Source: Thermoplasmatota archaeon (GTDB taxonomy: Archaea > Thermoplasmatota > Thermoplasmata > UBA10834). Taken from it: a DNA stretch of 64,000 bases. Made by a program: the position numbers and the translations under genes. The stretch is from assembly GCA_018818785.1 (NCBI GenBank), contig JAHIRF010000005.1, positions 275,513 through 339,512 on the forward strand, read 5' to 3'. Shown in pieces: positions 10,388 through 35,881 of the stretch. The notes under the pieces were generated by a model. That model did no database searches and was not told where the DNA came from. It was given only the letters and a program-made list of their open reading frames with translations. Position 1 is the stretch's first letter; every line of letters begins with the position of its first letter.

Positions 10388-10585
10388 ATGTGTGAGTCTG
10401 CAGTGTATCTTATGAAAGGCTCGGAGAAATCGTTGATCAAGGCCGAAACCTCGAAGATACTTATCGAGGACGGCATGGTGGTCTGCATCGGGGCGTTCGG
10501 CGAGAAGATAGAGGTGGAGAACGCAGAGCTCTCCGAGATCAACCTGATGAAGCACGAGATCATACTGCGCCCCAAGAAGGGATGA
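10388..10585 (+). CDS. cooT: CooT-like small nickel-binding protein
   Basis: 65 aa beginning MCESAVYL; the Cys2 N-terminus and the size are typical of CooT. Its stop overlaps the cooC start (ATGA at 10582-10585). Confidence 0.55.
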   Translation: MCESAVYLMKGSEKSLIKAETSKILIEDGMVVCIGAFGEKIEVENAELSEINLMKHEIILRPKKG

Positions 10586-11388
10586 GTCGGGGTCCCATGA
10601 AAGTGGCCGTAGTAGGCAAGGGTGGGGTCGGCAAGACCACAGTGGCCGGCTCAATGGCTAGGATCTGGGCCAGGGGTGGACTGCGAGTCTTGGCGGTCGA
10701 TGCCGATCCAGCGGCACACCTCCATTCGGTTCTGGGTATAGCGCGTTCTGAGATGCCGCATCCGATTTCCGAGGAGCTTGATCTGATAGAGGAGCGGACC
10801 GGGGCAAGGCCCGGGACATCTCAAGGGCCTTTCTTCAAGCTCAATCCTAGGGTAGAGGATATCCCGGACAGGTATTCCAAGCTAGGATCCGACGGAGTAT
10901 CACTGCTCGTCACCGGGACCATAAAGGCTGCTGGCAGCGGCTGTTTCTGTCCCGAAAATGCCATCTTACGCAGCCTTCTCGAACACATAATACTCGAGCG
11001 TGGTGACGCAGTGGTGGTCGACATGGAAGCCGGCCTGGAACAGTTCGGGCGCGCAACATGTCGTGGGGTTGACATGCTTCTTATCGTGATAGAGCCAGGA
11101 TCGAGGTCCATGGAGACGGCCGCCAGGATGGCCGAGCTCTCGCACGAGATGGGTGTCAAGAACATGTCCGTCGTCGCCAACCGTGTCAGGGGCAAGGAGG
11201 AAGCCGATGCTGTGGCAGAGCTCCTCGCCTCGCATTCGTTGAAGCTGGATTACGTTCTGCCATACTCCGAAGCGGTCGCCAAGGCCGACATGCTCGGCAT
11301 ATCGCCATTGGACCACGGAGACGACAACGAGTGGCTCTCCTCCGTCCGACGATTATCGAACGGAATGCTAGGTTCAGACCGAATCTAG
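10582..11388 (+). CDS. cooC: CO dehydrogenase nickel-insertion ATPase CooC (MinD/ParA family)
   Basis: Deviant Walker A motif VAVVGKGGVGKTT and the CooC-type Ni-binding GSGCFC(P) motif. Confidence 0.85.
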   Translation: MSRGPMKVAVVGKGGVGKTTVAGSMARIWARGGLRVLAVDADPAAHLHSVLGIARSEMPHPISEELDLIEERTGARPGTSQGPFFKLNPRVEDIPDRYSKLGSDGVSLLVTGTIKAAGSGCFCPENAILRSLLEHIILERGDAVVVDMEAGLEQFGRATCRGVDMLLIVIEPGSRSMETAARMAELSHEMGVKNMSVVANRVRGKEEADAVAELLASHSLKLDYVLPYSEAVAKADMLGISPLDHGDDNEWLSSVRRLSNGMLGSDRI

Positions 11389-11744
11389 GAGCGGTCATCT
11401 CTGATACGCCCCAACAATCTAGACTTGAATAACATCGGCAACAGCCGTCCTTTTCCGGTGATGACAACGTATTAGTAGCATCATATTCATTCGTCAGATG
11501 TCGAGTGCAGACTTGATGGCATCGGGGAGCCAGATGTCTGTTTGCGTGGGGATTAAGGTGAACGGGAGACTCGGAGACTGTACAAGTGACAGCTGTCCCG
11601 TCAGCCGGGCAGCGAACTATGAATCATTTGCGAAGCAGCAGCTGTCGATGAATCTTCGCAATTCGTTCGAAGATATCTCATGAGACCATTCGATTGCCGA
11701 TCATCCCATTCCTACCCTGCGGGGATCACCAGGGGTAGTCTGAG

Positions 11745-14700
11745 ATGGAGAAGGAGATAGGGTCCAGCAACAAGGGTGGCGCGAGTGCAAAATCATCATC
11801 GAAGTGGTCGTGCGACTGCTGGGATGAGAGTTGTCGGACCATGTTCACCGACGTTCACGATGAGGGTGTATGCACGGTCTTTGACCGTGTATCCGACCAG
11901 GGAGCGCAGTGCAGGTTCGGTTCGCTCGGACTCTGTTGCAGGATATGTCTGGAGGGCCCGTGCCGGATAAACCCTATGGGGAAGGAACCGACGTCCGGGA
12001 TATGCGGGGCTAAGGATTACACGATAGTCGCGCGAAACTTGGATAGGATGATCGTCGGGGGAACCGCATCCCATTCATGTCATGGGAAAGAGATATCCCA
12101 TGTGCTCCTGGAGGTATCCGAGGGGAAGATCACTGATTACAGGGTCACCGATGAATCGAAGCTTGAAAAGGTGGCAGCGCGTCTTGGGATCGATAAGCAA
12201 GGCAAGGGGATGCAGGCGATGGCCCGCGAGGTCGCCCTGGCTGCGATGGAGGATTATTCGAGATATTCTGCAGAGCCTCTCACTTTCCTGAGGACGACGG
12301 TGACCAAGTCCCGCATGGGGAACTGGGACTTCAATGCGGTGCTGCCTTCGAACATCAATACCACCATATCCGATCTGATGCACAGGACGGCCATGGGGGT
12401 CGATGCCGACCCGGTTCCTCTCCTGTTCGGCGGAGTGAAGTGTGCTCTGGCGGACTACGCAGGCGCTCAGATATCGTCCGACCTGAGCGACATTCTGTTC
12501 GGCACGCCCAAGATCGTGCTCAGTGAAGTGAACCTCAATGTGCTCGAGAAGGATGCGGTCAATGTCGCTGTCCATGGTCACAACCCGCTCCTGAGCGACA
12601 TAATGGTGGATGTGGCGCGAGAGATGACGGATGTCGCCAAGAGTGTAGGGGCGTCGCGCTTCAACATCGTGGGGGTGTGCTGCACAGGGAACGAGATACT
12701 CATGCGAAAGGGTGTGCCGATCGCTTCGAATGTGCTCTCCCAGGAACTGGTCGTCCTCTCCGGCATGCTGGATGCCATGGTCCTCGACTACCAGTGCTTC
12801 ATGCCGTCTCTCTCGTCTCTCACGAGATGCACCCACACCCGGTTGATATCCACCGAGGAGGTCGCGAGACTGGTGGGTGACACACACATAGAGCTGACTC
12901 CGGGGCGTGCGCGAACCTCAGCGAAGGAGATACTCACGATAGCCGCGGAGGCTTTCAAGCATCGCACCGGAACGAGGACTTTGCCTGCCGCGAAGCCTCA
13001 GCGTGTAGTTGCCGGTTTCAGCCTCGAGCAGATGAGACAATTGTTCGCGACCAAGAATCCAGAGGACCCGTTTCAGCACTTGGTCGACGGCATAATGCAC
13101 GGCAGCATCCGGGGCATCGCGCTCTTCGCCGGCTGCAAGAGCACGAAGGCAAAGGATGACCGTGATGTGCTCACGATCGCCAAGGAGCTTCTGAAGCGGG
13201 ATGTCCTCGTGATGGCGACTGGCTGCAACGCGATCGAGCTGGCCAAGGCAGGATTCATGGATCCAGACAAGGTCGGCGAGCTGGTCGGAGAGGGTCTTCA
13301 ATCGTTCCTTTCAGAGCTAGCGAAGGCTGCTGATGTGAAAGGCGGGCTCCCGTGTGTATGGCATATCGGATCCTGCGTGGACAACCCGCGCTTCTCCAAC
13401 CTGGCGACCGAGGTCGCCAACCGGCTGGACGTGGACATCGACAGGATCCCCTTCGTGGTGGCCGCCCCCGAGGCGATGCATGAGAAGGCCGTTTCTATAG
13501 GCACATGGGCGGTCACGATGGGCTTCCCCGTTCATGTGGGCACGATCAATTACATCTATGGCAGCACGCTCGTGACTGAAGTGTTGGAGAACACTGCGCG
13601 CGATGTCTTCGGAGGATATTTCATCTTCGAGAAGGACCCGCTCGAGGCCGCGAAGAGGATGTACTCCGCGATAGAGTACCGCCGTTGGAAACTCGATCTG
13701 TCGGATGCCGAGGTCGAGCGCGCGACCCATCTCGATGCGAAGAAGGGGACCGTCAAGAAGGAGGAGCTGTTCAAGATGGCGATCGAGGGATCGATAATCG
13801 CCACCGGCTACGCCGACCTGGTCCTGAGCCACGCGCTTCGGAAGCATGGTCCAGACAAGTTGGTGGAGTTCCCCGAGACTGGTTACCAGCTGCCGAGCAT
13901 CTTCGCATGGCTTGGCAAGAACTGCAACCGTCTGGGCGACCTACCTCAGCTCCTCGGAGAGGCGAGGAGGAAGATCGTCGAGGAGCCCACGTATGAAGCG
14001 GCTGTGGCTTCAGGCGAGGCCACGATGATAGCCGCCGAGATCGTGGAGGCTCTGAAGTACATAGACAACCCCGCGCCATACGAAGGCACACCGTATTGCG
14101 GGTTCGTGCCAGACAGGATACTGCGACAGCTCGGGATAGCGTTCGTGGACGACACCATACCTGGAGCTGCGGTGTTCGTGGGACGGGCCAGCGACCCGAA
14201 GAAACTCTCGGCGATGATCCGTGATTGCCAGAACAAAGGCATGTTGATCGTCGCGAGCTATGACATCATCAAGCAGCTCAAGGACGAGAACATCTCCATG
14301 GGTCTCGACAGGATGCTCTACCCGGTGGGCGAGTTCACACAGATCATACACGGACTCAACTTCGCCATCAGGGCAGCGCTCTCATTCGGAGGCATCCAGA
14401 AGGGCGACAGGGAGGGACTCTCCAACTACCTGTCGAAGCGCCCCAAGGTGTTCGTTCTTCAGCTGGGGCCGCTCGACTTCATCAAGGTGGCAGCAGAGTT
14501 CGCTGTCCTGTTCAACGGGTCGCCGACCATAACGGACCAGGATGTGGAGCCGATCCCTGACAAGTATGTGGTGCAGAAGAACCTCGATGAGATGATATCG
14601 ACAGCGATAGAGGTGAGGGGCTGCAAGATCAAGCTCGGCGCCATGGATCTTCCCGTGCCTTATGGACCCGCCTTCGAAGGTGAGACCATCAGGAGGCCGG

Positions 14701-15884
14701 ACATGCATATCGAGGCCGGCGGCCCATCCAAGACTCTCGCATTCGAACTCCTCAGGATGCGCACATCGGAGGAGATAACCGACGGGAACGTGACTCTGAT
14801 CGGGAAGGACATCGACGAGATGGAGGAAGGCTCGTCGACCAACCTGGGGATATTCGTCAGCGTGTACGGCAAGAACATGCAGAAGGATTTCGAATCCGTG
14901 CTGGAGCGCAGGATACACCAATTCGCCAACTTCGCGGAAGGGTTGTGGCACACGGGCCAGAGGAACCTCCTATGGGTCAGGATGAGCAAGACCTCGGTCA
15001 AGGCAGGGTTGAGGCTCAAGCACATCGGGGACATACTGGTCACGAAGCTCAAGCAGGAGTTCGGTGCCATCGTTTCGAAGATAGAGGTCACGATCGTCAC
15101 AGACGAGGATGAGCTCAGGAAGCATCTCGACGAGGCGAAGATGGTCTATGCCGAGAGGGATGCCAGGATCGCCGACTTGGTGGACGAGAATGTCGACATA
15201 TTCTACACCTGTACCTTGTGCCAGAGTTTCGCGCCCGGGCATGTATGCATCATCACGCCCGAGAGGCTGGGACTCTGTGGCGCCATCAACTGGTTGGATG
15301 CGAAAGCGTCCTATCAGATAGCGCCGACCGGGCCGAACAGCCCGGTATCCAAGAAGGAGACCATAGACGAGGTCAAGGGCCAATGGACGGGCGTGAACGA
15401 AGCGGTCAAGGAGAAGACCCAGGGCAAGCTGCAGCAGTTCAGCGCATACACCATGGTCGAGGACCCCATGACCTCATGCGGTTGTTTCGAATGCATAGTC
15501 GCGGTCTCGCCGGACCTCCAGGGGGTCGTGGTCGTGAACAGGGAACATGCTGGCATGACCCCGGTGGGCATGACCTTCTCGACGCTCGCAGGGTCCGTCG
15601 GAGGAGGGATACAGACGCCGGGGTTCATTGGCGTGGGCAGGAAATACCTCACCAGCAAGAAGTTCATCTCGGCAGACGGTGGTTTCATCAGGATCGTCTG
15701 GATGCCCAAGAACCTCAAGGAGGCCATGAAGGACGAGCTGAAGAAACGGGCAGAGGAGATCGGGGTGCCCGACTTCCTGGATAAGATCGCGGACGAGAGC
15801 GTCGCGAGGACGCCTGACGAGCTGACTAGCTGGCTGGTCGAGGTGAACCATCCTGTCATGGGGATGTCACCGATGATCAAGTGA
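11745..15884 (+). CDS. acsAB: Fused Ni-CODH (CooS/AcsA-type) and acetyl-CoA synthase (full-length AcsB) in one 1379-aa polypeptide
   Basis: The N-terminal half carries the CODH cluster motifs QCRFGSLGLCCRICLEGPCRINP (B/D-cluster), GVCCTGNE and HIGSCVDN (C-cluster). The C-terminal ~725 aa align along their length with Moorella-type AcsB: ATGYADLVL, WHTGQRN, CTLCQSFAPGHVCIITPERLGLCGAINW and the A-cluster Cys-Gly-Cys in SCGCFECIV. There is no stop or frameshift between the halves. Confidence 0.85.
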   Translation: MEKEIGSSNKGGASAKSSSKWSCDCWDESCRTMFTDVHDEGVCTVFDRVSDQGAQCRFGSLGLCCRICLEGPCRINPMGKEPTSGICGAKDYTIVARNLDRMIVGGTASHSCHGKEISHVLLEVSEGKITDYRVTDESKLEKVAARLGIDKQGKGMQAMAREVALAAMEDYSRYSAEPLTFLRTTVTKSRMGNWDFNAVLPSNINTTISDLMHRTAMGVDADPVPLLFGGVKCALADYAGAQISSDLSDILFGTPKIVLSEVNLNVLEKDAVNVAVHGHNPLLSDIMVDVAREMTDVAKSVGASRFNIVGVCCTGNEILMRKGVPIASNVLSQELVVLSGMLDAMVLDYQCFMPSLSSLTRCTHTRLISTEEVARLVGDTHIELTPGRARTSAKEILTIAAEAFKHRTGTRTLPAAKPQRVVAGFSLEQMRQLFATKNPEDPFQHLVDGIMHGSIRGIALFAGCKSTKAKDDRDVLTIAKELLKRDVLVMATGCNAIELAKAGFMDPDKVGELVGEGLQSFLSELAKAADVKGGLPCVWHIGSCVDNPRFSNLATEVANRLDVDIDRIPFVVAAPEAMHEKAVSIGTWAVTMGFPVHVGTINYIYGSTLVTEVLENTARDVFGGYFIFEKDPLEAAKRMYSAIEYRRWKLDLSDAEVERATHLDAKKGTVKKEELFKMAIEGSIIATGYADLVLSHALRKHGPDKLVEFPETGYQLPSIFAWLGKNCNRLGDLPQLLGEARRKIVEEPTYEAAVASGEATMIAAEIVEALKYIDNPAPYEGTPYCGFVPDRILRQLGIAFVDDTIPGAAVFVGRASDPKKLSAMIRDCQNKGMLIVASYDIIKQLKDENISMGLDRMLYPVGEFTQIIHGLNFAIRAALSFGGIQKGDREGLSNYLSKRPKVFVLQLGPLDFIKVAAEFAVLFNGSPTITDQDVEPIPDKYVVQKNLDEMISTAIEVRGCKIKLGAMDLPVPYGPAFEGETIRRPDMHIEAGGPSKTLAFELLRMRTSEEITDGNVTLIGKDIDEMEEGSSTNLGIFVSVYGKNMQKDFESVLERRIHQFANFAEGLWHTGQRNLLWVRMSKTSVKAGLRLKHIGDILVTKLKQEFGAIVSKIEVTIVTDEDELRKHLDEAKMVYAERDARIADLVDENVDIFYTCTLCQSFAPGHVCIITPERLGLCGAINWLDAKASYQIAPTGPNSPVSKKETIDEVKGQWTGVNEAVKEKTQGKLQQFSAYTMVEDPMTSCGCFECIVAVSPDLQGVVVVNREHAGMTPVGMTFSTLAGSVGGGIQTPGFIGVGRKYLTSKKFISADGGFIRIVWMPKNLKEAMKDELKKRAEEIGVPDFLDKIADESVARTPDELTSWLVEVNHPVMGMSPMIK

Positions 15885-16858
15885 TGTGTGTGGGGGATCG
15901 ACACATGGGGTTTGAAGGAGCGAAAGAGAGTTTTTCGGGCCGGATCAAGGAGGTCGTCATAGGTGCTACAGACGAGCATGGCGGTAGCAGGAGCAGGCGG
16001 CTCACGGTGGGTGGATCGAACGGTCTTCCGTTCCATTCATTCGAGAGCGAGATGCCGCATAAGCCACTGATAGCCATGGACATTGTCGATACGTTGCGCA
16101 TGGTCTCCGACACGCAGCTGAAGTCCATGGGCGATGTCGTGAAGGACCCCGTGGAGTGGGCCAAGCGCTGTGAGAAGGAATGGGGCGCGGACATCTGTGT
16201 GCTGAAGCTGCAGTCGGCGAACCCCGAGGAGGAGAACCGTTCGGTCGAGGAGTGCGAGTCCCTCTTCAAGGAAGTCCTGAAGGCGGTGTCCCTTCCGCTC
16301 TTCGTATACGGGTGCGGGTTCGAGGAGAAGGATGCCAAGCTGATGGAGGCGATCTCGAACGCTGGCAAGGGCGAGCGCCTGTTCATCGGTCTGGCGGAGG
16401 AGAAGGCATACAAGTCCCTGACGGCTGCGGCCATGGCGAACGGCCATGGTCTGGTGGCCTTCTCGAACCTCGATATCAACCTCGCGAAACAGATCAACAT
16501 ATTGCTGATGGATTTCGGCATGAAGCCCGAGAACATCCTCATGGACCCGCTCATGGCACCGCTCGGCATGGGTCTGGAATACTCATACTCCGTCATCGAG
16601 CGCCTGCGAATAGGCGCCCTGATGGGTGACCCGGTCCTCCAGATGCCGATGATCTGCGATTGCTCATGTGCGTGGACCGTGCCAGAGGTGCTCGAGGAGG
16701 ACGATGGCAAGGGGACGCAGGTGGAGCGAGGCGTCAATTGGGAGGTCATCACCGCCGAGGCCGCTCTGATGGCGGGAGCGGCCCTCGTCATAACCAGGCA
16801 TCCAGAATCCGTCAAGCATATCAGGGCGACGATCGACGATCTCTACGGGGGTGTGTGA
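15881..16858 (+). CDS. acsD: Corrinoid iron-sulfur protein small subunit (AcsD/CdhD-type)
   Basis: 325 aa, TIM-barrel-type CFeSP delta-like sequence; ATGA overlap with the acsAB stop. Confidence 0.8.
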   Translation: MMCVGDRHMGFEGAKESFSGRIKEVVIGATDEHGGSRSRRLTVGGSNGLPFHSFESEMPHKPLIAMDIVDTLRMVSDTQLKSMGDVVKDPVEWAKRCEKEWGADICVLKLQSANPEEENRSVEECESLFKEVLKAVSLPLFVYGCGFEEKDAKLMEAISNAGKGERLFIGLAEEKAYKSLTAAAMANGHGLVAFSNLDINLAKQINILLMDFGMKPENILMDPLMAPLGMGLEYSYSVIERLRIGALMGDPVLQMPMICDCSCAWTVPEVLEEDDGKGTQVERGVNWEVITAEAALMAGAALVITRHPESVKHIRATIDDLYGGV

Positions 16859-18184
16859 ATGCCCACCGCGATGGAGATATACAAGCTTCTCCCGAAGAAG
16901 AACTGCGGAGAGTGCAAGTTCCCCACATGTCTGGCGTTCGCGATGCAGCTCGCGAACCAGAAGGTCGCCCTCGAAGCCTGTCCGTATGTCAGTCCCGAGG
17001 CGAAGGCCGCGCTCGAGGAGAGCGGCGCCCCGCCCATCAGGCTCATGACGTTCGGCACTGGTGACATGGCAGTCAAGGTCGGCGACGAGACCCAGCTGTT
17101 CAGGCACGACAAGACGTTCTACAACCCCACGGTGATAGGTCTCATAGCCGACGATTCCTCAGGGTCACAAGGGATCAAGGACGGGGTCGCACTTGTGAAG
17201 TCGCTGTCCTTCGAGAGAGTCGGACAGAACATACGTGTCAACTCGATCGCGATCAGGCATTCGACCGGGGACCCGAAAGAATTCCTGGAAGGTGTGAAGC
17301 ACGCATCATCGGAGGGATTGCCGATGGTCCTGATGACCGAAGACCCGGGGCTGATGGGAGAGACGTCTGTCGCATGGCCCAAGAGGCCGTTGCTCTACAG
17401 GGCCACACCGGCCAACTTCGATGCGATGATCGAGGTGGCCAAGCGGTCTTCGTGCCCGCTCGTGATCGGGGGAGCAGCCACGCTTGACGAGCTCTCGCAG
17501 CTGTCAGAGCGGGCGAAGAAGGCGGGAGTCACGGACCTCGTCCTCGAACCGGTTCAGGGCACGTGCGCCCAGCTCCTCGAGAGCATGACAGTCGTGCGAA
17601 GGGCCGCTGTCAAGAAACATTTCCGCCCCTTGGGATATCCGACAATATCTGTGCTGGGGTCGTCTGATCTGGACAAGGGCAGGGCGACGATCGGCGTGGC
17701 GAAGTACTCGTCCATCGTGCTCATGGACGAGCTGTCCAGAGGGTTCGTCTTCCCCCTCATGGTCCTCAGGCAGAACATCTTCACCGACCCGCAGGTCCCC
17801 ATCCAGGTGAAGCCCGGATTGTACAAGGTGGGAGAGCCGAACGAGAAGTCTCCCGTCATGTTCACGACCAACTTCTCCTTGACATACTTCACCGTGCGCG
17901 CAGACATCGAGAAGAGCAAGATGCCCGCCTGGCTTCTGGTGATAGACACCGAGGGTCAGTCCGTCATGACCGCGTTCGCGGCAGGGAAGCTCACGCCGGA
18001 GTCGGTCACGGAGGCGATAGAGAAGGAGAAGGTCAAGGATGTCAGCAAGAGGAACGAGATCGTGATCCCCGGGATGGTGAGCAGGATGAGCGGCAAGCTC
18101 AACGAGCTCTCGGGGATGAAGGTGATTGTCGGCTCGCGGGAGTCCTCAGGCATACCCAAGATGATCAAGTCATTCAGCGGATAG
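16859..18184 (+). CDS. acsC: Corrinoid iron-sulfur protein large subunit (AcsC/CdhE-type)
   Basis: N-terminal 4Fe-4S motif KKNCGECKFPTCLAFAMQL...CPYV followed by TIM-barrel and B12-binding regions; starts 1 nt after the acsD stop. Confidence 0.8.
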   Translation: MPTAMEIYKLLPKKNCGECKFPTCLAFAMQLANQKVALEACPYVSPEAKAALEESGAPPIRLMTFGTGDMAVKVGDETQLFRHDKTFYNPTVIGLIADDSSGSQGIKDGVALVKSLSFERVGQNIRVNSIAIRHSTGDPKEFLEGVKHASSEGLPMVLMTEDPGLMGETSVAWPKRPLLYRATPANFDAMIEVAKRSSCPLVIGGAATLDELSQLSERAKKAGVTDLVLEPVQGTCAQLLESMTVVRRAAVKKHFRPLGYPTISVLGSSDLDKGRATIGVAKYSSIVLMDELSRGFVFPLMVLRQNIFTDPQVPIQVKPGLYKVGEPNEKSPVMFTTNFSLTYFTVRADIEKSKMPAWLLVIDTEGQSVMTAFAAGKLTPESVTEAIEKEKVKDVSKRNEIVIPGMVSRMSGKLNELSGMKVIVGSRESSGIPKMIKSFSG

Positions 18185-18186
18185 GC

Positions 18187-18939
18187 TCAGCGTCCCACCC
18201 GTTCAGATTCGACGGCCCTGCCGACATCGGAGAACGCGGGGTCGCTCGCTGGCATGTCCATGAGCGATTCAGTGTCCTTCGCGTGAGCGCACAGCCATGC
18301 CGACCCCCTCACGCTGTACACAGCATCGAACCTGTCACTCGAATATGACGACAGATCTTGTCCCTGGCCCAGCTGATCGACCACCAGGACCGTCCTGGAG
18401 ATGTTCAGGGCCATCTCCTCTGCGAGGTCCGCGATCCTGTTCGCGGCCGACAGCGACGATCTTGTCGTGTCGCAGAGGACGAACAGCACCTCTGTGGACC
18501 GTGTGGTTCTCCTGCTGAGGTGTTCCATCCCTGCCTCGTTGTCTATCACGACATGATCGTATCTCTCCGAGATCGAATCGATGAGGTTGCGTAGCATGTT
18601 GTTTATGAAACAGTAACATCCGGGTCCTTCGGGTCTGCCCATCGTGAGCAGGTCGAAACCGTCTCCCTCCCTGAGCGCCAGCCTGACCTGGTAGTCTATG
18701 TATTCCTGTTTCGACATGCTGGGTGGCGGCTCCTCGCCGTAGGATGCCAGCTCCTCTCTTATGTCTCCTAGGGTCCTTCCAGGTCCTTGTCCGAGCTTCG
18801 CGCCGAGGTTGTGATTCGAGTCGGCATCCACCGCGAGCACGACCTTCCCTGTCTTCCTGTTTAGATGCCTTATCGCCATCGCGCAGAACGTGGTCTTGCC
18901 AACTCCTCCCTTCCCGGCCACGGCTATCGTGTAGGTCAT
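18187..18939 (-). CDS. acsF: Second CooC-family nickel-insertion ATPase (AcsF-like)
   Basis: The true start is MTYTIAVAGKGGVGKTTF at ATG 18939, overlapping the RACo stop (ATGA). The long upstream part of ORF 18187..19299 is a shadow frame of the RACo gene. Confidence 0.8.
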   Translation of the reverse strand: MTYTIAVAGKGGVGKTTFCAMAIRHLNRKTGKVVLAVDADSNHNLGAKLGQGPGRTLGDIREELASYGEEPPPSMSKQEYIDYQVRLALREGDGFDLLTMGRPEGPGCYCFINNMLRNLIDSISERYDHVVIDNEAGMEHLSRRTTRSTEVLFVLCDTTRSSLSAANRIADLAEEMALNISRTVLVVDQLGQGQDLSSYSSDRFDAVYSVRGSAWLCAHAKDTESLMDMPASDPAFSDVGRAVESERVGR

Positions 18940-20846
18940 GCGACATCCCGCCAGTCGTTGGCATGGTTCGCACTGGGGAATCTTCCAAGATCCGTATGGG
19001 GGATGAACAGAGATGCGGAGAACTCCTCGTAGAATTCGTTGTCCACACTGAGTTCGAGATATGTCATCTTGTTCAGTATCTTCGATGTCTCCCGTCTCGC
19101 ATCCTTCGATACCAGCGCCAGCTTCGCCCCTCCCAGAGCTCCGTTGCCTATGAACCTGTACTTCTTCCTGGGAACATCCGGGAACATCCCCAGAGTCACG
19201 GCCCTGGTCATGTCCAGATGGAAGCCGAACCCTCCAGCGATGACTATGCTCGACAGGCTCCCCAGATCCTTCCCGGTCTTCCGCAACAATACGGAGCACG
19301 CGCCGTAGATGGCCGCCTTCGTCCTCAGGATGTTCTGCAGGTCCGCATCCGTTATCACGAGGTCCGAGGTGGCTCCTTCATGGAGACGCTCCTTCCTCTC
19401 TATGACATATTCCAGGCCTTCTTCACCGGTTCTCACCCTGTCACTGTCCCTTTCCTGTATCCTGGCCTTGCGGTCTATCACGCCTCTCGCATACATCTCC
19501 GCCATCAGGTCGACCAGGCCTGACCCGCAGACACCGATCGGGGCCCGGTCTCCTATCACATGATATTTCGCAGCGAGATCATCGTCTATCCTGAGCCTGT
19601 CTATCGCGCCGTCCATCGCCCTCACGCCGCAGGTGACCTCTCCCCCTTCGAACGCTGGTCCGGCCGAGCAAGAGCATGAGACCATCCAATCCCTGCATCC
19701 GAGGACCACCTCTCCGTTGGTGCCCACATCGATCAGGAGATGAGTCCTCTTCGATCTGTGCATCTCACTGGCCAACACATCCGCGATGACGTCCCCTCCT
19801 ACATACCCTGCTCTGGAGGGGAAGGTGAAGACCGAACCCGCTCCGTTCATCATCAATCCGAGGTCTTTGGCCTTCATCGGGGGAATGTGGTGAGTCACCG
19901 GGACGTACGGCTCCAGTCGGACATTGTCCGTCGATAGTCCGAGGAAGAACTGCGTCATCACGGTATTGCCCGCAATCGATGCAGCCACGATGTCCTGTCG
20001 TGAGAGGCGCTCGCCGTCCATCTCATTCCGTTCCTCCATGACTCTGCTTATGCACGAGTTCACCGTCTCTCTCGCCAATGACGTGAGTTCATCCAGTCCG
20101 TTTTCCTCACCGAACATCATTCTGGCAATCACATCATCGCCATGTGTCATCTGTCTGTTGAAGTCTGAAGCCGTCCCCAGAACCTCTCCTGTGTCGAGGT
20201 CGATGAGGTCGACGACGACCGTGGTCGTCCCTATGTCGACCGCGATCCCGACCGCACTCCCCCTTGTGTCCCCTGGCTCCACTCTGATTATCTCCACGGG
20301 CCCCGCCAGATCGGACCGGGTCGCAGTGACCTTCCATCTCCCGTCCCTCAACGCGGACGGCAGGTCTCTGAGACCTTCGAGCGAGATCTCGGGCCGTGCA
20401 TCGTCCATCGCACGCATCATCCTCTCTCGGTCCGCCAGGTTATCGGAGAGCGTCGCAGGATTCATCTCCAGGAAGCGTTTGGTCACCCAGGGGGTCGTCC
20501 GCTCAGGCATCTTCTGTACCGATTTCGTCACTATCTGGTGCTTTCCGAGCCTGTACCTCGGCAGCACATGGACGATCAGATCCCCTTCTATTCTGGAAGT
20601 GCATGCGAGTGCGATGCCTTCTCGAACCTCTTCTTCTGTCAGATGTTCGGACCCTTCGGTGATGGTCTTTCCGTCTATCTTCACCTTGCAGCGTCCGCAC
20701 TTGCCGCTCCCACCGCATACCGCATCGATCGGTATGCATGCCAGTCTGCCTGCCTCCAGCACTGTCGTTCCCCTATCGACGGTAACCTGCTTTCCATCCG
20801 GTCGGAACACCACCCTCAGATTGTTCCGCCCTTCGTCAGCTGTCAT
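18936..20846 (-). CDS. Reductive activator of corrinoid iron-sulfur protein (RACo/AcsV-like)
   Basis: 636 aa; N-terminal plant-type [2Fe-2S] ferredoxin motif CGGSGKCGRCKV...LAC followed by an ASKHA/DUF4445-like ATPase region. Confidence 0.75.
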   Translation of the reverse strand: MTADEGRNNLRVVFRPDGKQVTVDRGTTVLEAGRLACIPIDAVCGGSGKCGRCKVKIDGKTITEGSEHLTEEEVREGIALACTSRIEGDLIVHVLPRYRLGKHQIVTKSVQKMPERTTPWVTKRFLEMNPATLSDNLADRERMMRAMDDARPEISLEGLRDLPSALRDGRWKVTATRSDLAGPVEIIRVEPGDTRGSAVGIAVDIGTTTVVVDLIDLDTGEVLGTASDFNRQMTHGDDVIARMMFGEENGLDELTSLARETVNSCISRVMEERNEMDGERLSRQDIVAASIAGNTVMTQFFLGLSTDNVRLEPYVPVTHHIPPMKAKDLGLMMNGAGSVFTFPSRAGYVGGDVIADVLASEMHRSKRTHLLIDVGTNGEVVLGCRDWMVSCSCSAGPAFEGGEVTCGVRAMDGAIDRLRIDDDLAAKYHVIGDRAPIGVCGSGLVDLMAEMYARGVIDRKARIQERDSDRVRTGEEGLEYVIERKERLHEGATSDLVITDADLQNILRTKAAIYGACSVLLRKTGKDLGSLSSIVIAGGFGFHLDMTRAVTLGMFPDVPRKKYRFIGNGALGGAKLALVSKDARRETSKILNKMTYLELSVDNEFYEEFSASLFIPHTDLGRFPSANHANDWRDVA

Positions 20847-20987: not shown

Positions 20988-21764
20988 TTGATAGTCGTGG
21001 GTGAGAGGATCAACGGACAATTTCCTCTGGTTTCGAAAGCGATAGATGCCAGGGACGAGAAGACGATTCAGGGCATGGCGTTGGAACAGATATCTGCAGG
21101 AGCGGACGTCCTCGACGTGAACACTGGTCCGGGGAGGGATGACGGTCCTGAAGCCATGGCCTGGCTCGTCAAGACCATCCAGGACGCGGTCGATATACGG
21201 CTTGCGATCGATTCTCCGGGGTTGAAGGTTCAGCAGGCAGGCTTGACGGCGTGCAAGCGCACGCCTCTGATCAACTCCACGACTGCCGAGGAGAAGCGCA
21301 TGGAGAAGTTCTTCCCATTGGCTCTCGAACACAATGCAGAGATCGTCTGCCTGACGATAAACGAGAAAGGCATTCCCAATTCTGTGGATGGACGGACGGA
21401 GACTGCGATGCTCCTGCTCACAAATGCCATGGACAAAGGGATCCCACCAGAGAACCTGTATCTGGACCCGGTCGTGCTGCCGATCACAGCCGCTCAGGAT
21501 CAGTGCCCCGTCGTCTGCGACGCCATCACTGCGTTCAGGGCACTCAACACTCCTCCTCCAAAGACAATAGTCGGGCTGAGCAATGTATCAAGCGGCGCGG
21601 AGGAGCGCAACCTGCTGAACAGGACATATCTCGGCATGCTCCTCGGTCGCGGTCTGGACGCTGCGATCGTTGACCCGCTCGACCTCGAGTTGGTCAAGGA
21701 GCTCAAGGCCGCCGAGGTCCTGTTGAACCACAAGCTGTACGCCCATTCGTTCCTGAGGGCATGA
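20988..21764 (+). CDS. acsE: Methyltetrahydrofolate:corrinoid iron-sulfur protein methyltransferase (AcsE)
   Basis: MIVVGERINGQF N-terminus (compare Moorella MLIIGERING) and a pterin-binding TIM-barrel sequence; TTG start with a GGAGA/GGGGG upstream. Confidence 0.8.
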   Translation: MIVVGERINGQFPLVSKAIDARDEKTIQGMALEQISAGADVLDVNTGPGRDDGPEAMAWLVKTIQDAVDIRLAIDSPGLKVQQAGLTACKRTPLINSTTAEEKRMEKFFPLALEHNAEIVCLTINEKGIPNSVDGRTETAMLLLTNAMDKGIPPENLYLDPVVLPITAAQDQCPVVCDAITAFRALNTPPPKTIVGLSNVSSGAEERNLLNRTYLGMLLGRGLDAAIVDPLDLELVKELKAAEVLLNHKLYAHSFLRA

Positions 21765-22417
21765 GGTGGACCGTGATGATCGGGGGCAGGGACAGCCATG
21801 ACGATGCTCTTCGGGTCGGATGGGACAGTCTGAAAGAGTGCGGCATCAGCGAGTTCTCCCCTGCTGGAGCGACGGTGGACACAGACGCTTCTCAGCTGAG
21901 ACTGAAGGTGATGGATCGCATCTGCACGATCGACCTCAGCTCGGAGAGGATGAGCTACGAAGATGGTGAACGGGAAGAGGTCAGCGCCTACCTCCGGATA
22001 CTGATCCTTCATTATCTAGTGGGTGCGAGGGACAAGTCTCCATCGGGTGCCATGGTCTCATTCAGGGAGTTCGAGGGCGGTGCGCTCTACTACTCCGCAT
22101 TCAAGAAGAGGACGATCGATGTTCTGACTGGCACATTCGGTGATGACGCCGATAGCCTTCGGAGAGCTGGCGAAAGGTTGGGGGCGACCACACTCATGAG
22201 TGGGTCCGTATCGTTCCGTGTGATGTTCTTCCCAAAGCTCCCGGTCGACGTGTTGTTTTGGCTGGGTGACGAGGAGGTACCATCATCCGCGAACATACTC
22301 TTCGACGAGACCGCGGGGAAGATGATCGCGACCGAAGACCTGTCCGCACTCGCAGGCGTCCTATGTATCCGATTGATCAAATCGTCGTCCAAGGCCGAGC
22401 CTGTCGGATCGAAATAG
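21761..22417 (+). CDS. DUF3786 domain protein (often linked to acs clusters)
   Basis: 218 aa; ATGA overlap with acsE; sequence character matches DUF3786 (e.g. FKKRTIDVLTGTFGDD, VMFFPKLPVDVLFW). Confidence 0.55.
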   Translation: MRWTVMIGGRDSHDDALRVGWDSLKECGISEFSPAGATVDTDASQLRLKVMDRICTIDLSSERMSYEDGEREEVSAYLRILILHYLVGARDKSPSGAMVSFREFEGGALYYSAFKKRTIDVLTGTFGDDADSLRRAGERLGATTLMSGSVSFRVMFFPKLPVDVLFWLGDEEVPSSANILFDETAGKMIATEDLSALAGVLCIRLIKSSSKAEPVGSK

Positions 22418-34663: not shown

Positions 34664-35881
34664 ATGCTCCACAGAGCGGTAGTGTTCCACATTCATGGCG
34701 AGCTACCATTTGAGGCTACGATGCTCATGGAGGATTTCCGCCTGGCAGTCAACTCTGCGATCAGAGCGGGCCTAAATGCGAAGGTCACCTCCAGGAATGC
34801 CCTGGCGAAGCTTGCGTACAAGGACTTCAGGAAAGAGCATCCGAACATGTATGCCCAGCATCTGGTATCCTCGTTCGAGGTCGCGGGTTCGGTGCTGAAG
34901 AACCTGCGAAGGCGTTGGGGGAAGGGCCCGACCCATCGCATTCCATATGTGCGTCGACTGATGATGAAGGCGGAGAACCAGGCATACAAGCTCGATCGAG
35001 AGAATGGCGTGATCGACCTTCCTATACGGGCAGGATGTCATGTGAAGCTGAGGCTCGTCCTGAGCGATTACCATCGCATCTATCTGAACGACAGAACTCT
35101 CTCTCTTGGTTCACTGACCCTACTTCCAGACAGAGTCATAATAGCCTTCAGGAAGAGCCTGCCTGAATCATACATTCCAGAGACGGCCCTGTCTCTGGAT
35201 ACCAATGAACGATCCTTGGACGGCGTGTTACTGAGCGAAGATGAGTGCCTGCCAGTCCAGGCCGCGTATCCCGATGTCCCGATAATCCAGGCACGGCATC
35301 ATGACCAGCGCAGGAGCCTCCAGAAGAAGAAGGCGCACGACCGGCGGACATCGAGGCGGTTGTGTCGCAGAGAGGGGAAGAGAGAGCGTCATCGGATCGA
35401 GTATCGCATGCACCAGGTGGCCAATGCGGTCCTCGGCTTCGCGGAGGAGCATAAATCGACGATTGTGCTCGAGGATCTGAGTTGGATGACAGCGCGTAAG
35501 CGCGGCAAATCGCTCAACAGGCGGTTGAACTCATGGCCTCGGAGGAAGCTTCACGACTTCATCGAGTACAAGGCAGCCTGGAAAGGCGTGCCAGTCATCA
35601 AGGTGGACCCATACAACAGCAGCAGGAGGTGCCCAATATGTAGGAGATTGAATCATTCCCGAATGGGCGCCGATTTCGAGTGTGAGTGCGGTTGGTGTGC
35701 CGACAGGCATGTCAACGCTGGCATAAACCTGCTGCAGACAGCCTTCCCAGAAGGGATGGCAGGGGGCTTACGGTTCAGCCCCGGCGCGTTCCAGCATGAC
35801 GTGGTGATGACCCTCTACGACCCAGAGATGGGCGCACGGTTGGAGCCGAATGGGACGAGTCGATCGGTGGTTCAGTCATGA
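34664..35881 (+). CDS. tnpB: TnpB (OrfB) RNA-guided endonuclease / IS605-family transposase accessory protein
   Basis: RuvC-I LSLDTNE, RuvC-II IVLEDLSWM, zinc finger CPICRRLNH...CECGWC and RuvC-III ADRHVNAGINL are all present. Confidence 0.8.
   Translation: MLHRAVVFHIHGELPFEATMLMEDFRLAVNSAIRAGLNAKVTSRNALAKLAYKDFRKEHPNMYAQHLVSSFEVAGSVLKNLRRRWGKGPTHRIPYVRRLMMKAENQAYKLDRENGVIDLPIRAGCHVKLRLVLSDYHRIYLNDRTLSLGSLTLLPDRVIIAFRKSLPESYIPETALSLDTNERSLDGVLLSEDECLPVQAAYPDVPIIQARHHDQRRSLQKKKAHDRRTSRRLCRREGKRERHRIEYRMHQVANAVLGFAEEHKSTIVLEDLSWMTARKRGKSLNRRLNSWPRRKLHDFIEYKAAWKGVPVIKVDPYNSSRRCPICRRLNHSRMGADFECECGWCADRHVNAGINLLQTAFPEGMAGGLRFSPGAFQHDVVMTLYDPEMGARLEPNGTSRSVVQS

Follow-up and report, generated by a model that had tools for sequence, protein, structure and literature searches.

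In a 64,000-nucleotide stretch of DNA from a Thermoplasmatota archaeon (contig JAHIRF010000005.1, positions 275,513 to 339,512; hereafter the window), we found that carbon monoxide dehydrogenase (CODH, the product of acsA) and acetyl-CoA synthase (ACS, the product of acsB) are encoded as one continuous protein. CODH/ACS is the central enzyme of the Wood–Ljungdahl pathway, and the tunnelling of substrate between its two subunits is a textbook case. The gene very probably specifies a genuine single-chain bifunctional CODH/ACS, with the assembly, the origin and the connector role of the tether that we propose below. An earlier note, made from the letters of the window, had claimed such a 1379-residue fusion, and this held: the open reading frame (ORF) starts at an ATG and translates 1379 codons without a stop, with the junction between the halves in frame. 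The gene and its parts are the following:

11745..15884, forward strand: acsA–acsB fusion gene, a single ORF of 1379 amino acids (aa) and 150.8 kDa, with four Pfam domains and with the CooS and AcsB equivalog models both above cut-off

11745..13694, forward strand: CODH module, residues 1–650, delimited by alignment to 1su6_A and 7zkk_A; its last helix reads ...EYRRWKL

13695..13760, forward strand: tether, residues ~651–672, LDLSDAEVERATHLDAKKGTVK, the gap between CODH and ACS homology, of variable sequence

13761..14645, forward strand: ACS domain A1, residues 673–967, the CODH-docking, tunnel-bearing N-terminal domain (Pfam CODH_A_N), which aligns to Carboxydothermus hydrogenoformans ACS 17–311 (9fu4_B, 7zkj_B)

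14646..15884, forward strand: ACS domains A2–A3 with the A-cluster, residues 968–1379 (Pfam CdhC and ACS_CODH_B_C), which align to 3git_A and 1oao_C

Both halves belong to the families to which they had been assigned by eye. Pfam domains follow one another in the order Prismane/CODH (residues 63–632), CODH_A_N (PF18537, 694–773), CdhC (969–1123) and ACS_CODH_B_C (1135–1378), and on the CODH half PF03063 is matched from position 1 to 512 of its 513 at 494.5 bits. Residues 27–651 match the NCBIfam model for CooS/AcsA-type CODH, TIGR01702 (positions 3–620 of 621), at 663 bits, where the curated cut-off is 478. Residues 680–1378 match the NCBIfam model of full-length AcsB of the bacterial type, NF040764 (positions 1–705 of 705), at 964 bits, the curated cut-off being 800, and NF007078 gives 961.5 bits against 809 on the same half; the C-terminal half is thus AcsB, the identity on which the earlier claim hinged. 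E-values of 1e-199 to 1e-290 exclude a chance match for either half. Characterised chains are likewise matched almost from end to end. In the CODH half, residues 24–651 align to C. hydrogenoformans CODH-II, residues 29–657 to positions 31–658 of the 669 in CODH-III of the CODH/ACS complex, and residues 31–659 to positions 34–665 of the 674 in Moorella AcsA; in the ACS half, residues 672–1378 align to positions 17–728 of the 730 in C. hydrogenoformans ACS (7zkj_B) and residues 674–1377 to positions 20–728 of the 729 in Moorella ACS.

Every residue expected to hold a metal cluster is in place. The N-terminal CODH motif CRFGSLGLCCRICLEGPC...C supplies C56, C64, C65, C68, C73 and C87, and residue alignment to 1su6_A and 7zkk_A assigns C56 and C64 to the D-cluster and C65, C68, C73 and C87 to the B-cluster. 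The same alignment gives the C-cluster as H279, C313, C351, C464, C494 and C544, with H110 and K581 as the acid–base residues; C313 lies in CCTGNE and C544 in GSCVDN, so that the CODH hallmarks described earlier for the first ~640 residues are indeed there. We take the CODH-II counterparts to be C39 and C47 for the D-cluster, C48, C51, C56 and C70 for the B-cluster, H261, C295, C333, C446, C476 and C526 for the C-cluster, and H93 and K563 for the acid–base pair. On the ACS side, ATGYADLVL occupies residues 686–694 and the A-cluster reads C1156-x2-C1159-x8-C1168-x9-C1178 followed by C1245-G1246-C1247, with CTLC opening the first motif; the spacing is identical to that of the Moorella ligands C506, C509, C518, C528 and C595-G596-C597. 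The Cys-Gly-Cys codons lie at 15477–15485, inside the range of 15477–15494 first quoted for them. In an alignment of 38 fused proteins (the window protein and 37 homologs, 55–98% identical), all D-, B-, C- and A-cluster ligands and the acid–base residues are invariant, and nothing in these sequences suggests that either half is degenerate. Ahead of the CODH core there is an extra CxCx4C motif (C23, C25 and C30 in KWSCDCWDESC; nucleotides (nt) 11811–11834), which may be an additional metal site; it is limited to the Thermoplasmata subfamily and is not found in the more distant fused proteins.

The fusion is widespread. In a search of 5.8 billion proteins we recovered at least 120 clusters, formed at 90% identity, whose sequences derive from NCBI, JGI, ENA and Logan assemblies; they measure 1188–1896 aa, mostly ~1380 aa, and every one has all four Pfam domains. 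One 1377-aa cluster member is present on 45 contigs. We also scanned GTDB, with one genome per species, re-calling stop-to-stop ORFs at the 76 loci returned and searching the two halves separately by BLAST. The junction lies within one ORF in 30 species genomes, a lower bound since the scan used peptide patterns specific to the window protein. These genomes are labelled as Thermoplasmata, Thermoplasmatota, Euryarchaeota and ‘Methanobacteriota’ metagenome-assembled genomes (MAGs) and include two complete chromosomes; one fused locus comes from isolate UBA10834, and the closest, at 98% identity, is on JACZKW010000058.1 of a Thermoplasmata MAG. Bacterial loci from Actinomycetota, Nitrospirota, Desulfobacterales, Spirochaetes, Firmicutes and others have separate ORFs in 29 of 29 cases and a fusion in none; the Nitrospirota loci have the gene order acsB then acsA. 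Both halves were matched within ~4.1 kb at several bacterial loci, which we examined as candidate fusions; all turned out to be two ORFs. The Methanoperedens loci in the scan are classical cdhABC. The fused homologs that the earlier note had asked to be sought are archaeal, and the bacterial loci recovered have two genes. The NCBI labels of the fused family are Thermoplasmata, Methanomassiliicoccales, Halobacteriota and Bathyarchaeia, of which the last two may reflect transfer or mis-binning.

The earlier note had also called the fusion unusual, which is right relative to characterised enzymes and wrong for the archaeal clade: throughout that clade fusion is the rule, and such proteins are already present in public databases. 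There the protein goes, depending on the source, by ‘anaerobic carbon-monoxide dehydrogenase catalytic subunit’, ‘acetyl-CoA decarbonylase/synthase complex subunit alpha/beta’ or ‘acetyl-CoA synthase’; both functions are named only in some JGI entries. An intein (Pfam LAGLIDADG_3 and Intein_splicing) interrupts four of the ACS homologs (P0079, P0098, P0122 and P0130), of which two are fused CODH–ACS proteins of ~1895 aa; it is inserted exactly at the second Cys of the A-cluster CxxC, which corresponds to residue ~1159 of the window protein (nt ~15219–15221).

The two modules are joined by a short tether. Homology to solved CODH chains ends at residues 651–659 and homology to solved ACS chains begins at 672–675, leaving a homology-free gap of ~14 residues and a tether of ~14–22 residues overall. 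A linker does therefore join the halves, as had been noted; the length of ~30 aa then given for it (13660–13780) was too long, its variable part being confined to 13695–13760. In 119 aligned sequences (118 fused family members and the window protein), the spacing between two invariant residues that flank the tether, W648 and G682, takes four values: 27 (23 sequences), 33 (61), 36 (16) and 38 (11). In the 38-sequence alignment, motifs within the tether distinguish the classes: the Thermoplasmata group has DPE-ERAS, for example, and YWDGTT occurs elsewhere. The tether evolves fast: its mean identity to the window protein is 19%, where the CODH part has 59% and the ACS part 72–73%. By these measures the tether is a connector under weak sequence constraint, whose frame and approximate length appear to be maintained, and in effect it takes the place of two natural subunit tails, that at the C terminus of AcsA and that at the N terminus of AcsB. 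A Shine–Dalgarno (SD)-like GGAGGAG at 13760–13766 stands 11 nt before an in-frame ATG at 13776 (Met678); it may be a relic of a former acsB ribosome-binding site, or simply codons for Lys-Glu-Glu.

An AlphaFold2 (AF2) model of window residues 21–975 (CODH and A1), run as a monomer with 118 homologs as the alignment, had a mean predicted local distance difference test (pLDDT) score of 87 and a predicted template modelling (pTM) score of 0.90; in it the tether has pLDDT 78–89 and forms a short helix at 655–661. For a member of the shortest tether class (P0060, residues 1–950) the scores were pLDDT 89 and pTM 0.90, and 16 ordered residues (pLDDT 85–93) lead from the last CODH helix to the first ACS helix. 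Because A1 makes up about a third of the modelled chain, a pTM of 0.90 implies that its position relative to CODH is confidently predicted, and the models make docking in cis, of A1 on the CODH module of its own chain, plausible on geometric grounds throughout the family.

All fused proteins belong to a single family, with identities of 55% or more. We queried 1.84 billion representatives, clustered at 50% identity, exhaustively with HMMER, using 1200 residues across the junction, and found a single full-length fused representative (P0111) and a few partial or rearranged relatives; all other matches were stand-alone, with ACS at no more than 51% and CODH at no more than 47% identity, and the nearest unfused ACS (P0124) came from a Methanomassiliicoccaceae MAG. 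In neighbour-joining trees, a clade of all fused sequences excludes all other unfused ones in 95 of 100 bootstraps for CODH and 100 of 100 for ACS, and trees of the separate halves recover matching subgroups. How the halves came together is suggested by a Methanomassiliicoccales MAG (E29_bin30; locus L031, 9781–9990) in which acsA and acsB are separate genes: acsA ends in ...RRWKLGIGTDEEIVYANGQT...GGK and a TGA, and after 4 nt an ATG opens acsB (ITQKELF...) in a different frame. The neighbouring fused subfamily has a tether, RRWKLGIG-DDPDVIYWDGTT...ITQTQLF, to which the tail of this AcsA and the start of this AcsB align; this implies that the tether was built from former subunit tails and that a stop or an indel alone separates the fused and split states. 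We propose a single origin, in which adjacent and translationally coupled acsA and acsB genes lost the stop codon and the short spacer that had separated them. This would have happened in an archaeal lineage using a bacterial-type acs operon, and the fused gene may then have been passed on, together with the rest of the operon, within Thermoplasmatota and to some other archaea.

In the working that we propose for the enzyme, two chains would dimerise through their N-terminal CODH modules with the D-cluster as the bridge, because the two D-cluster cysteines of each chain require a partner, and would give an (AcsA–AcsB)2 assembly equivalent to the classical α2β2 complex. Each A1 domain would dock on a CODH module, most simply that of its own chain. 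CO2 would be reduced to CO at the Ni,Fe C-cluster, and the CO would pass through the internal tunnel to the Ni-Ni-[4Fe4S] A-cluster, there to be combined with a methyl group and CoA into acetyl-CoA; the reverse reaction would also be possible. The methyl group would come from the AcsCD corrinoid protein, loaded by AcsE and reactivated by the reductive activator RACo, and two CooC-type ATPases would insert nickel. The tether would guarantee 1:1 stoichiometry and co-assembly and leave the chemistry unchanged. Equimolar synthesis and co-assembly are probably guaranteed by the fusion, and it is plausible that both stoichiometry and tunnel geometry would be fixed by it, as the earlier note had suggested.

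Other accounts of the gene and its product have to be weighed against this single-chain enzyme. The continuous frame might be an artefact in which a frameshift or missed stop merged adjacent acsA and acsB, and the nearly abutting genes of L031 show that one indel could suffice; some members of the fused clusters are, moreover, called as proteins of ~658–737 aa on long contigs. These shorter calls start at internal GTG or ATG codons, where a frameshift and a real split look the same, and we did not use them as evidence. An artefact would have had to strike the separate assemblies of 30 species genomes and, across four data sources, at least 120 clusters, to produce four discrete tether lengths, each many times over, with conserved motifs particular to each subfamily, and to do so at a junction without a homopolymer; the chance of this is negligible, and an assembly artefact is effectively refuted. 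Hardly more credible is that one half is a degenerate, non-catalytic scaffold, whether a CODH-like anchor or an inactive ACS. One relative (P0121) does lack the CODH segment bearing three C-cluster ligands, and the ACS of locus L033 (below) has no CODH beside it; against this, every cluster ligand and both acid–base residues are invariant in the window protein and its 37 homologs, both halves score above equivalog cut-offs, and two CooC-type maturases are encoded alongside.

It is improbable, though less so, that the gene yields two working polypeptides, either because the tether is cleaved after folding or because AcsB is translated from the internal Met678. The SD-like element upstream, the presence of Met678 in 73% of the 119 aligned sequences, database entries that begin at it (such as P0332, 702 aa, ‘MAIEG...’) and the poor conservation of the tether would all fit. 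However, whole subfamilies have Lys in place of Met678, GGAGGAG simply encodes Lys-Glu-Glu in a conserved helix, a spacing of 11 nt is long for an SD sequence, and the tether is ordered in the AF2 models; the frame and the tether length classes have also been kept over deep divergence, which would be needless if the products were separate. The least improbable of these alternatives, though still unlikely, is a domain swap, in which A1 docks on the CODH of the partner chain and the tether crosses the dimer and adds stability. The AF2 runs were of monomers, and an extended tether of ~14–25 residues could reach ~50–85 Å; on the other side stand the compact cis arrangement, predicted with confidence (pTM 0.90) even for the shortest tether class, and the solved complexes, in which each ACS contacts mainly one CODH subunit.

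Several observations weigh against the reading that we prefer. The intact 151-kDa chain is predicted from gene sequences, and some free AcsB could also be made from Met678. Being monomers, the AF2 models show cis docking only, which leaves room for the swapped arrangement; the trees are neighbour-joining trees with a simple distance correction rather than maximum-likelihood ones; and the tether, at 19% identity, is barely conserved. At two loci without a fusion, both genes of L031 and the ACS of L033 nest inside the fused clade (93 of 100 and 97 of 100 bootstraps). L033, on a complete chromosome (CP070767.1, 8010–9677), encodes an ACS of 555 aa that is without ~150 N-terminal A1 residues; upstream of it there is no CODH gene and a divergent gene lies on the other strand, so this looks to be an ACS that has been remodelled, and perhaps works independently of CODH, in a near relative of the fused clade. 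From their positions in the tree, the two loci look like secondary fission (or, for the single MAG, a sequencing frameshift) and not like the ancestral state. With a split locus and a CODH-less one inside the clade, the covalent link seems dispensable, and it seems from these loci to be without a strong functional role; the weak conservation of the tether and the apparent fission in L031 together suggest that the advantage of fusion is modest.

We compared the fusion protein with the known forms of the enzyme. It shares most with the bacterial α2β2 CODH/ACS of Moorella thermoacetica and Carboxydothermus hydrogenoformans (PDB 1MJG/1OAO, 7ZKJ): both modules match at full length (CODH 29–659, ACS 672–1378), the CODH module being 46–47% identical by structural alignment, and the cluster ligands, the three-domain ACS with A1 and the partner genes acsC, acsD, acsE, cooC/acsF and RACo are common to both. 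It differs in being one polypeptide with a tether of ~14–22 residues in an archaeal host, and in having the tether where the two-gene enzyme of C. hydrogenoformans has subunit tails (~11 CODH and 16 ACS residues). With the archaeal acetyl-CoA decarbonylase/synthase (ACDS, CdhABCDE) it has the overall chemistry, the A-cluster core and the type of host in common; its A2–A3 domains match CdhC models (TIGR00316, 473 bits; PDB 9c0s_E) over residues 967–1372 only. Its CODH is of the CooS type and not of the CdhA type with its extra FeS domain (TIGR00314, 56.6 bits against a cut-off of 781.3), its ACS has the A1 domain that CdhC is without, and the methyltransferase encoded here is AcsE-like; no gene like that of the ε subunit, CdhB, was found among the neighbours of the fusion gene in the window. 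Monofunctional Ni,Fe-CODHs (CooS; C. hydrogenoformans CODH-II, Rhodospirillum rubrum CooS) align end to end with the N-terminal 650 residues and have identical ligands, with a template modelling (TM) score in Foldseek of 0.97–0.98 relative to the CODH-II target. Unlike CODH-II, the module ends in the EYRRWKL helix, as does the ACS-associated CODH-III (YRTWKLG), and ACS then follows.

No solved fused chain was found in the PDB by Foldseek, the best query-normalised TM score being 0.65 and covering CODH only. AcsB-type ACS has been reported in Bathyarchaeota, Methanomassiliicoccales, Thermoplasmatota and others in the accessible part of a 2026 preprint (PMC13370988), which also discusses the fusion of a non-catalytic prismane-fold (A1) domain to the ACS core; its taxa overlap those of the fused family, and a catalytic CODH fused to AcsB is not mentioned in that part of it. 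We found no description of an AcsA–AcsB fusion in the literature searched, although one may exist. As far as we could find, then, the fusion is an architectural variant of a well-known enzyme that is real, old and poorly named in databases, and apparently undescribed and uncharacterised. Other merged ORFs from acs operons combine AcsB–AcsD, AcsD–CODH, Pyr_redox_2–AcsB and DUF166–CODH (P0128, P0129, P0135, P0195, P0132 and P0144). Adjacent acs genes are merged in these as they are here, and none of them joins both catalytic subunits; the first three kinds indicate that gene merging is recurrent in the acs operon.

What is known of the chemistry is not changed by the fusion, whose interest is to structural biologists working on CODH/ACS and to those reconstructing archaeal carbon metabolism. 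For the former, the CODH–ACS interface tolerates a covalent link and has kept it over long evolutionary time, and one gene for both nickel enzymes, with stoichiometry guaranteed, offers an easier route to heterologous expression, to a structure and to engineering. For the latter, a distinct archaeal clade running a bacterial-type acs operon bears on the debated history of the enzyme between the two domains, and the misleading single-function names mean that CODH or ACS may appear absent from a pathway reconstruction in which each gene is credited with a single function. We hold it to be rather unlikely that the tether is an adaptation which, through a self-assembling single chain of fixed 1:1 stoichiometry and permanently sealed CO tunnel, let the bacterial-type enzyme work in several archaeal phyla (Thermoplasmatota and the lineages labelled Halobacteriota and Bathyarchaeia) and move between them as one operon, or else that fusion is the original condition of the entire ‘archaeal AcsB’ branch; were either true, nature would have supplied a template for engineering single-chain catalysts that turn CO2 into acetyl-CoA.

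The fusion gene lies in a cluster with the other genes of a bacterial-type acs operon:

10582..11388, forward strand: cooC/acsF-type P-loop ATPase, a nickel-insertion accessory (Pfam CbiA/ArsA_ATPase/ParA/Fer4_NifH; 268-aa ORF)

15881..16858, forward strand: acsD, corrinoid iron–sulfur protein small subunit (Pfam CdhD; 325 aa)

16859..18184, forward strand: acsC, corrinoid iron–sulfur protein large subunit with an N-terminal FeS motif (Pfam FeS and CdhD; 441 aa)

18187..~18939, reverse strand: second CooC/AcsF-type ATPase (Pfam AAA_31/CbiA/ArsA_ATPase from residue 122)

18936..20846, reverse strand: RACo, reductive activator of the corrinoid iron–sulfur protein (Pfam Fer2, RACo_linker, Raco_middle, RACo_C_ter)

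20988..21764, forward strand: acsE-type methyltransferase, pterin-binding (Pfam Pterin_bind)

21761..22417, forward strand: DUF3786 protein, the last gene of the cluster (Pfam DUF3786)

The start of acsD overlaps the stop of the fusion gene (GTGATG). As called mechanically, the ORF of the second CooC-type ATPase extends to 19299 and overlaps the end of the RACo gene by ~360 nt; its ATPase domain begins just past the RACo stop, so the gene probably starts near 18939 and would code for ~250 aa, and orthologs of 248–250 aa occupy this position at two other fused loci, L077 and L078. Around the fused genes of these loci, which are 56% and 63% identical, the order acsAB, acsD, acsC, cooC, RACo, acsE is kept, with the methyltransferase in the matching position in L077 and an equivalent cooC-type gene near the fusion in L078. 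Their contigs carry archaeal genes, such as those for tRNA-splicing endonuclease and A-type ATPase subunits. The window itself encodes PurP (formate-dependent FAICAR synthetase family, 588 bits), an EMG1/NEP1 methyltransferase and an RPA-like OB-fold protein, all archaeal markers; the host is an archaeon with a bacterial-type acs operon, a point on which the earlier note was silent. We considered a recent transfer of the cluster and rejected it, there being no sign of insertion and a uniform G+C content (0.53–0.61) across the cluster and its flanks.

Between the upstream cooC-type gene and the fusion lies an unusually long gap of 356 nt (11389–11744), which is probably a leader or promoter region; it had no Rfam match, and no tRNA was found in the window. 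Of the relatives, only the 98% one shares the 62-codon ORF that runs from 11498 within the gap. Downstream of the acs cluster, at a distance of about 19 kb, an ORF at 34664–35881 contains the C-terminal region of a TnpB-family RNA-guided endonuclease, its score to NF040570 (86.9 bits) being under the cut-off of 100.

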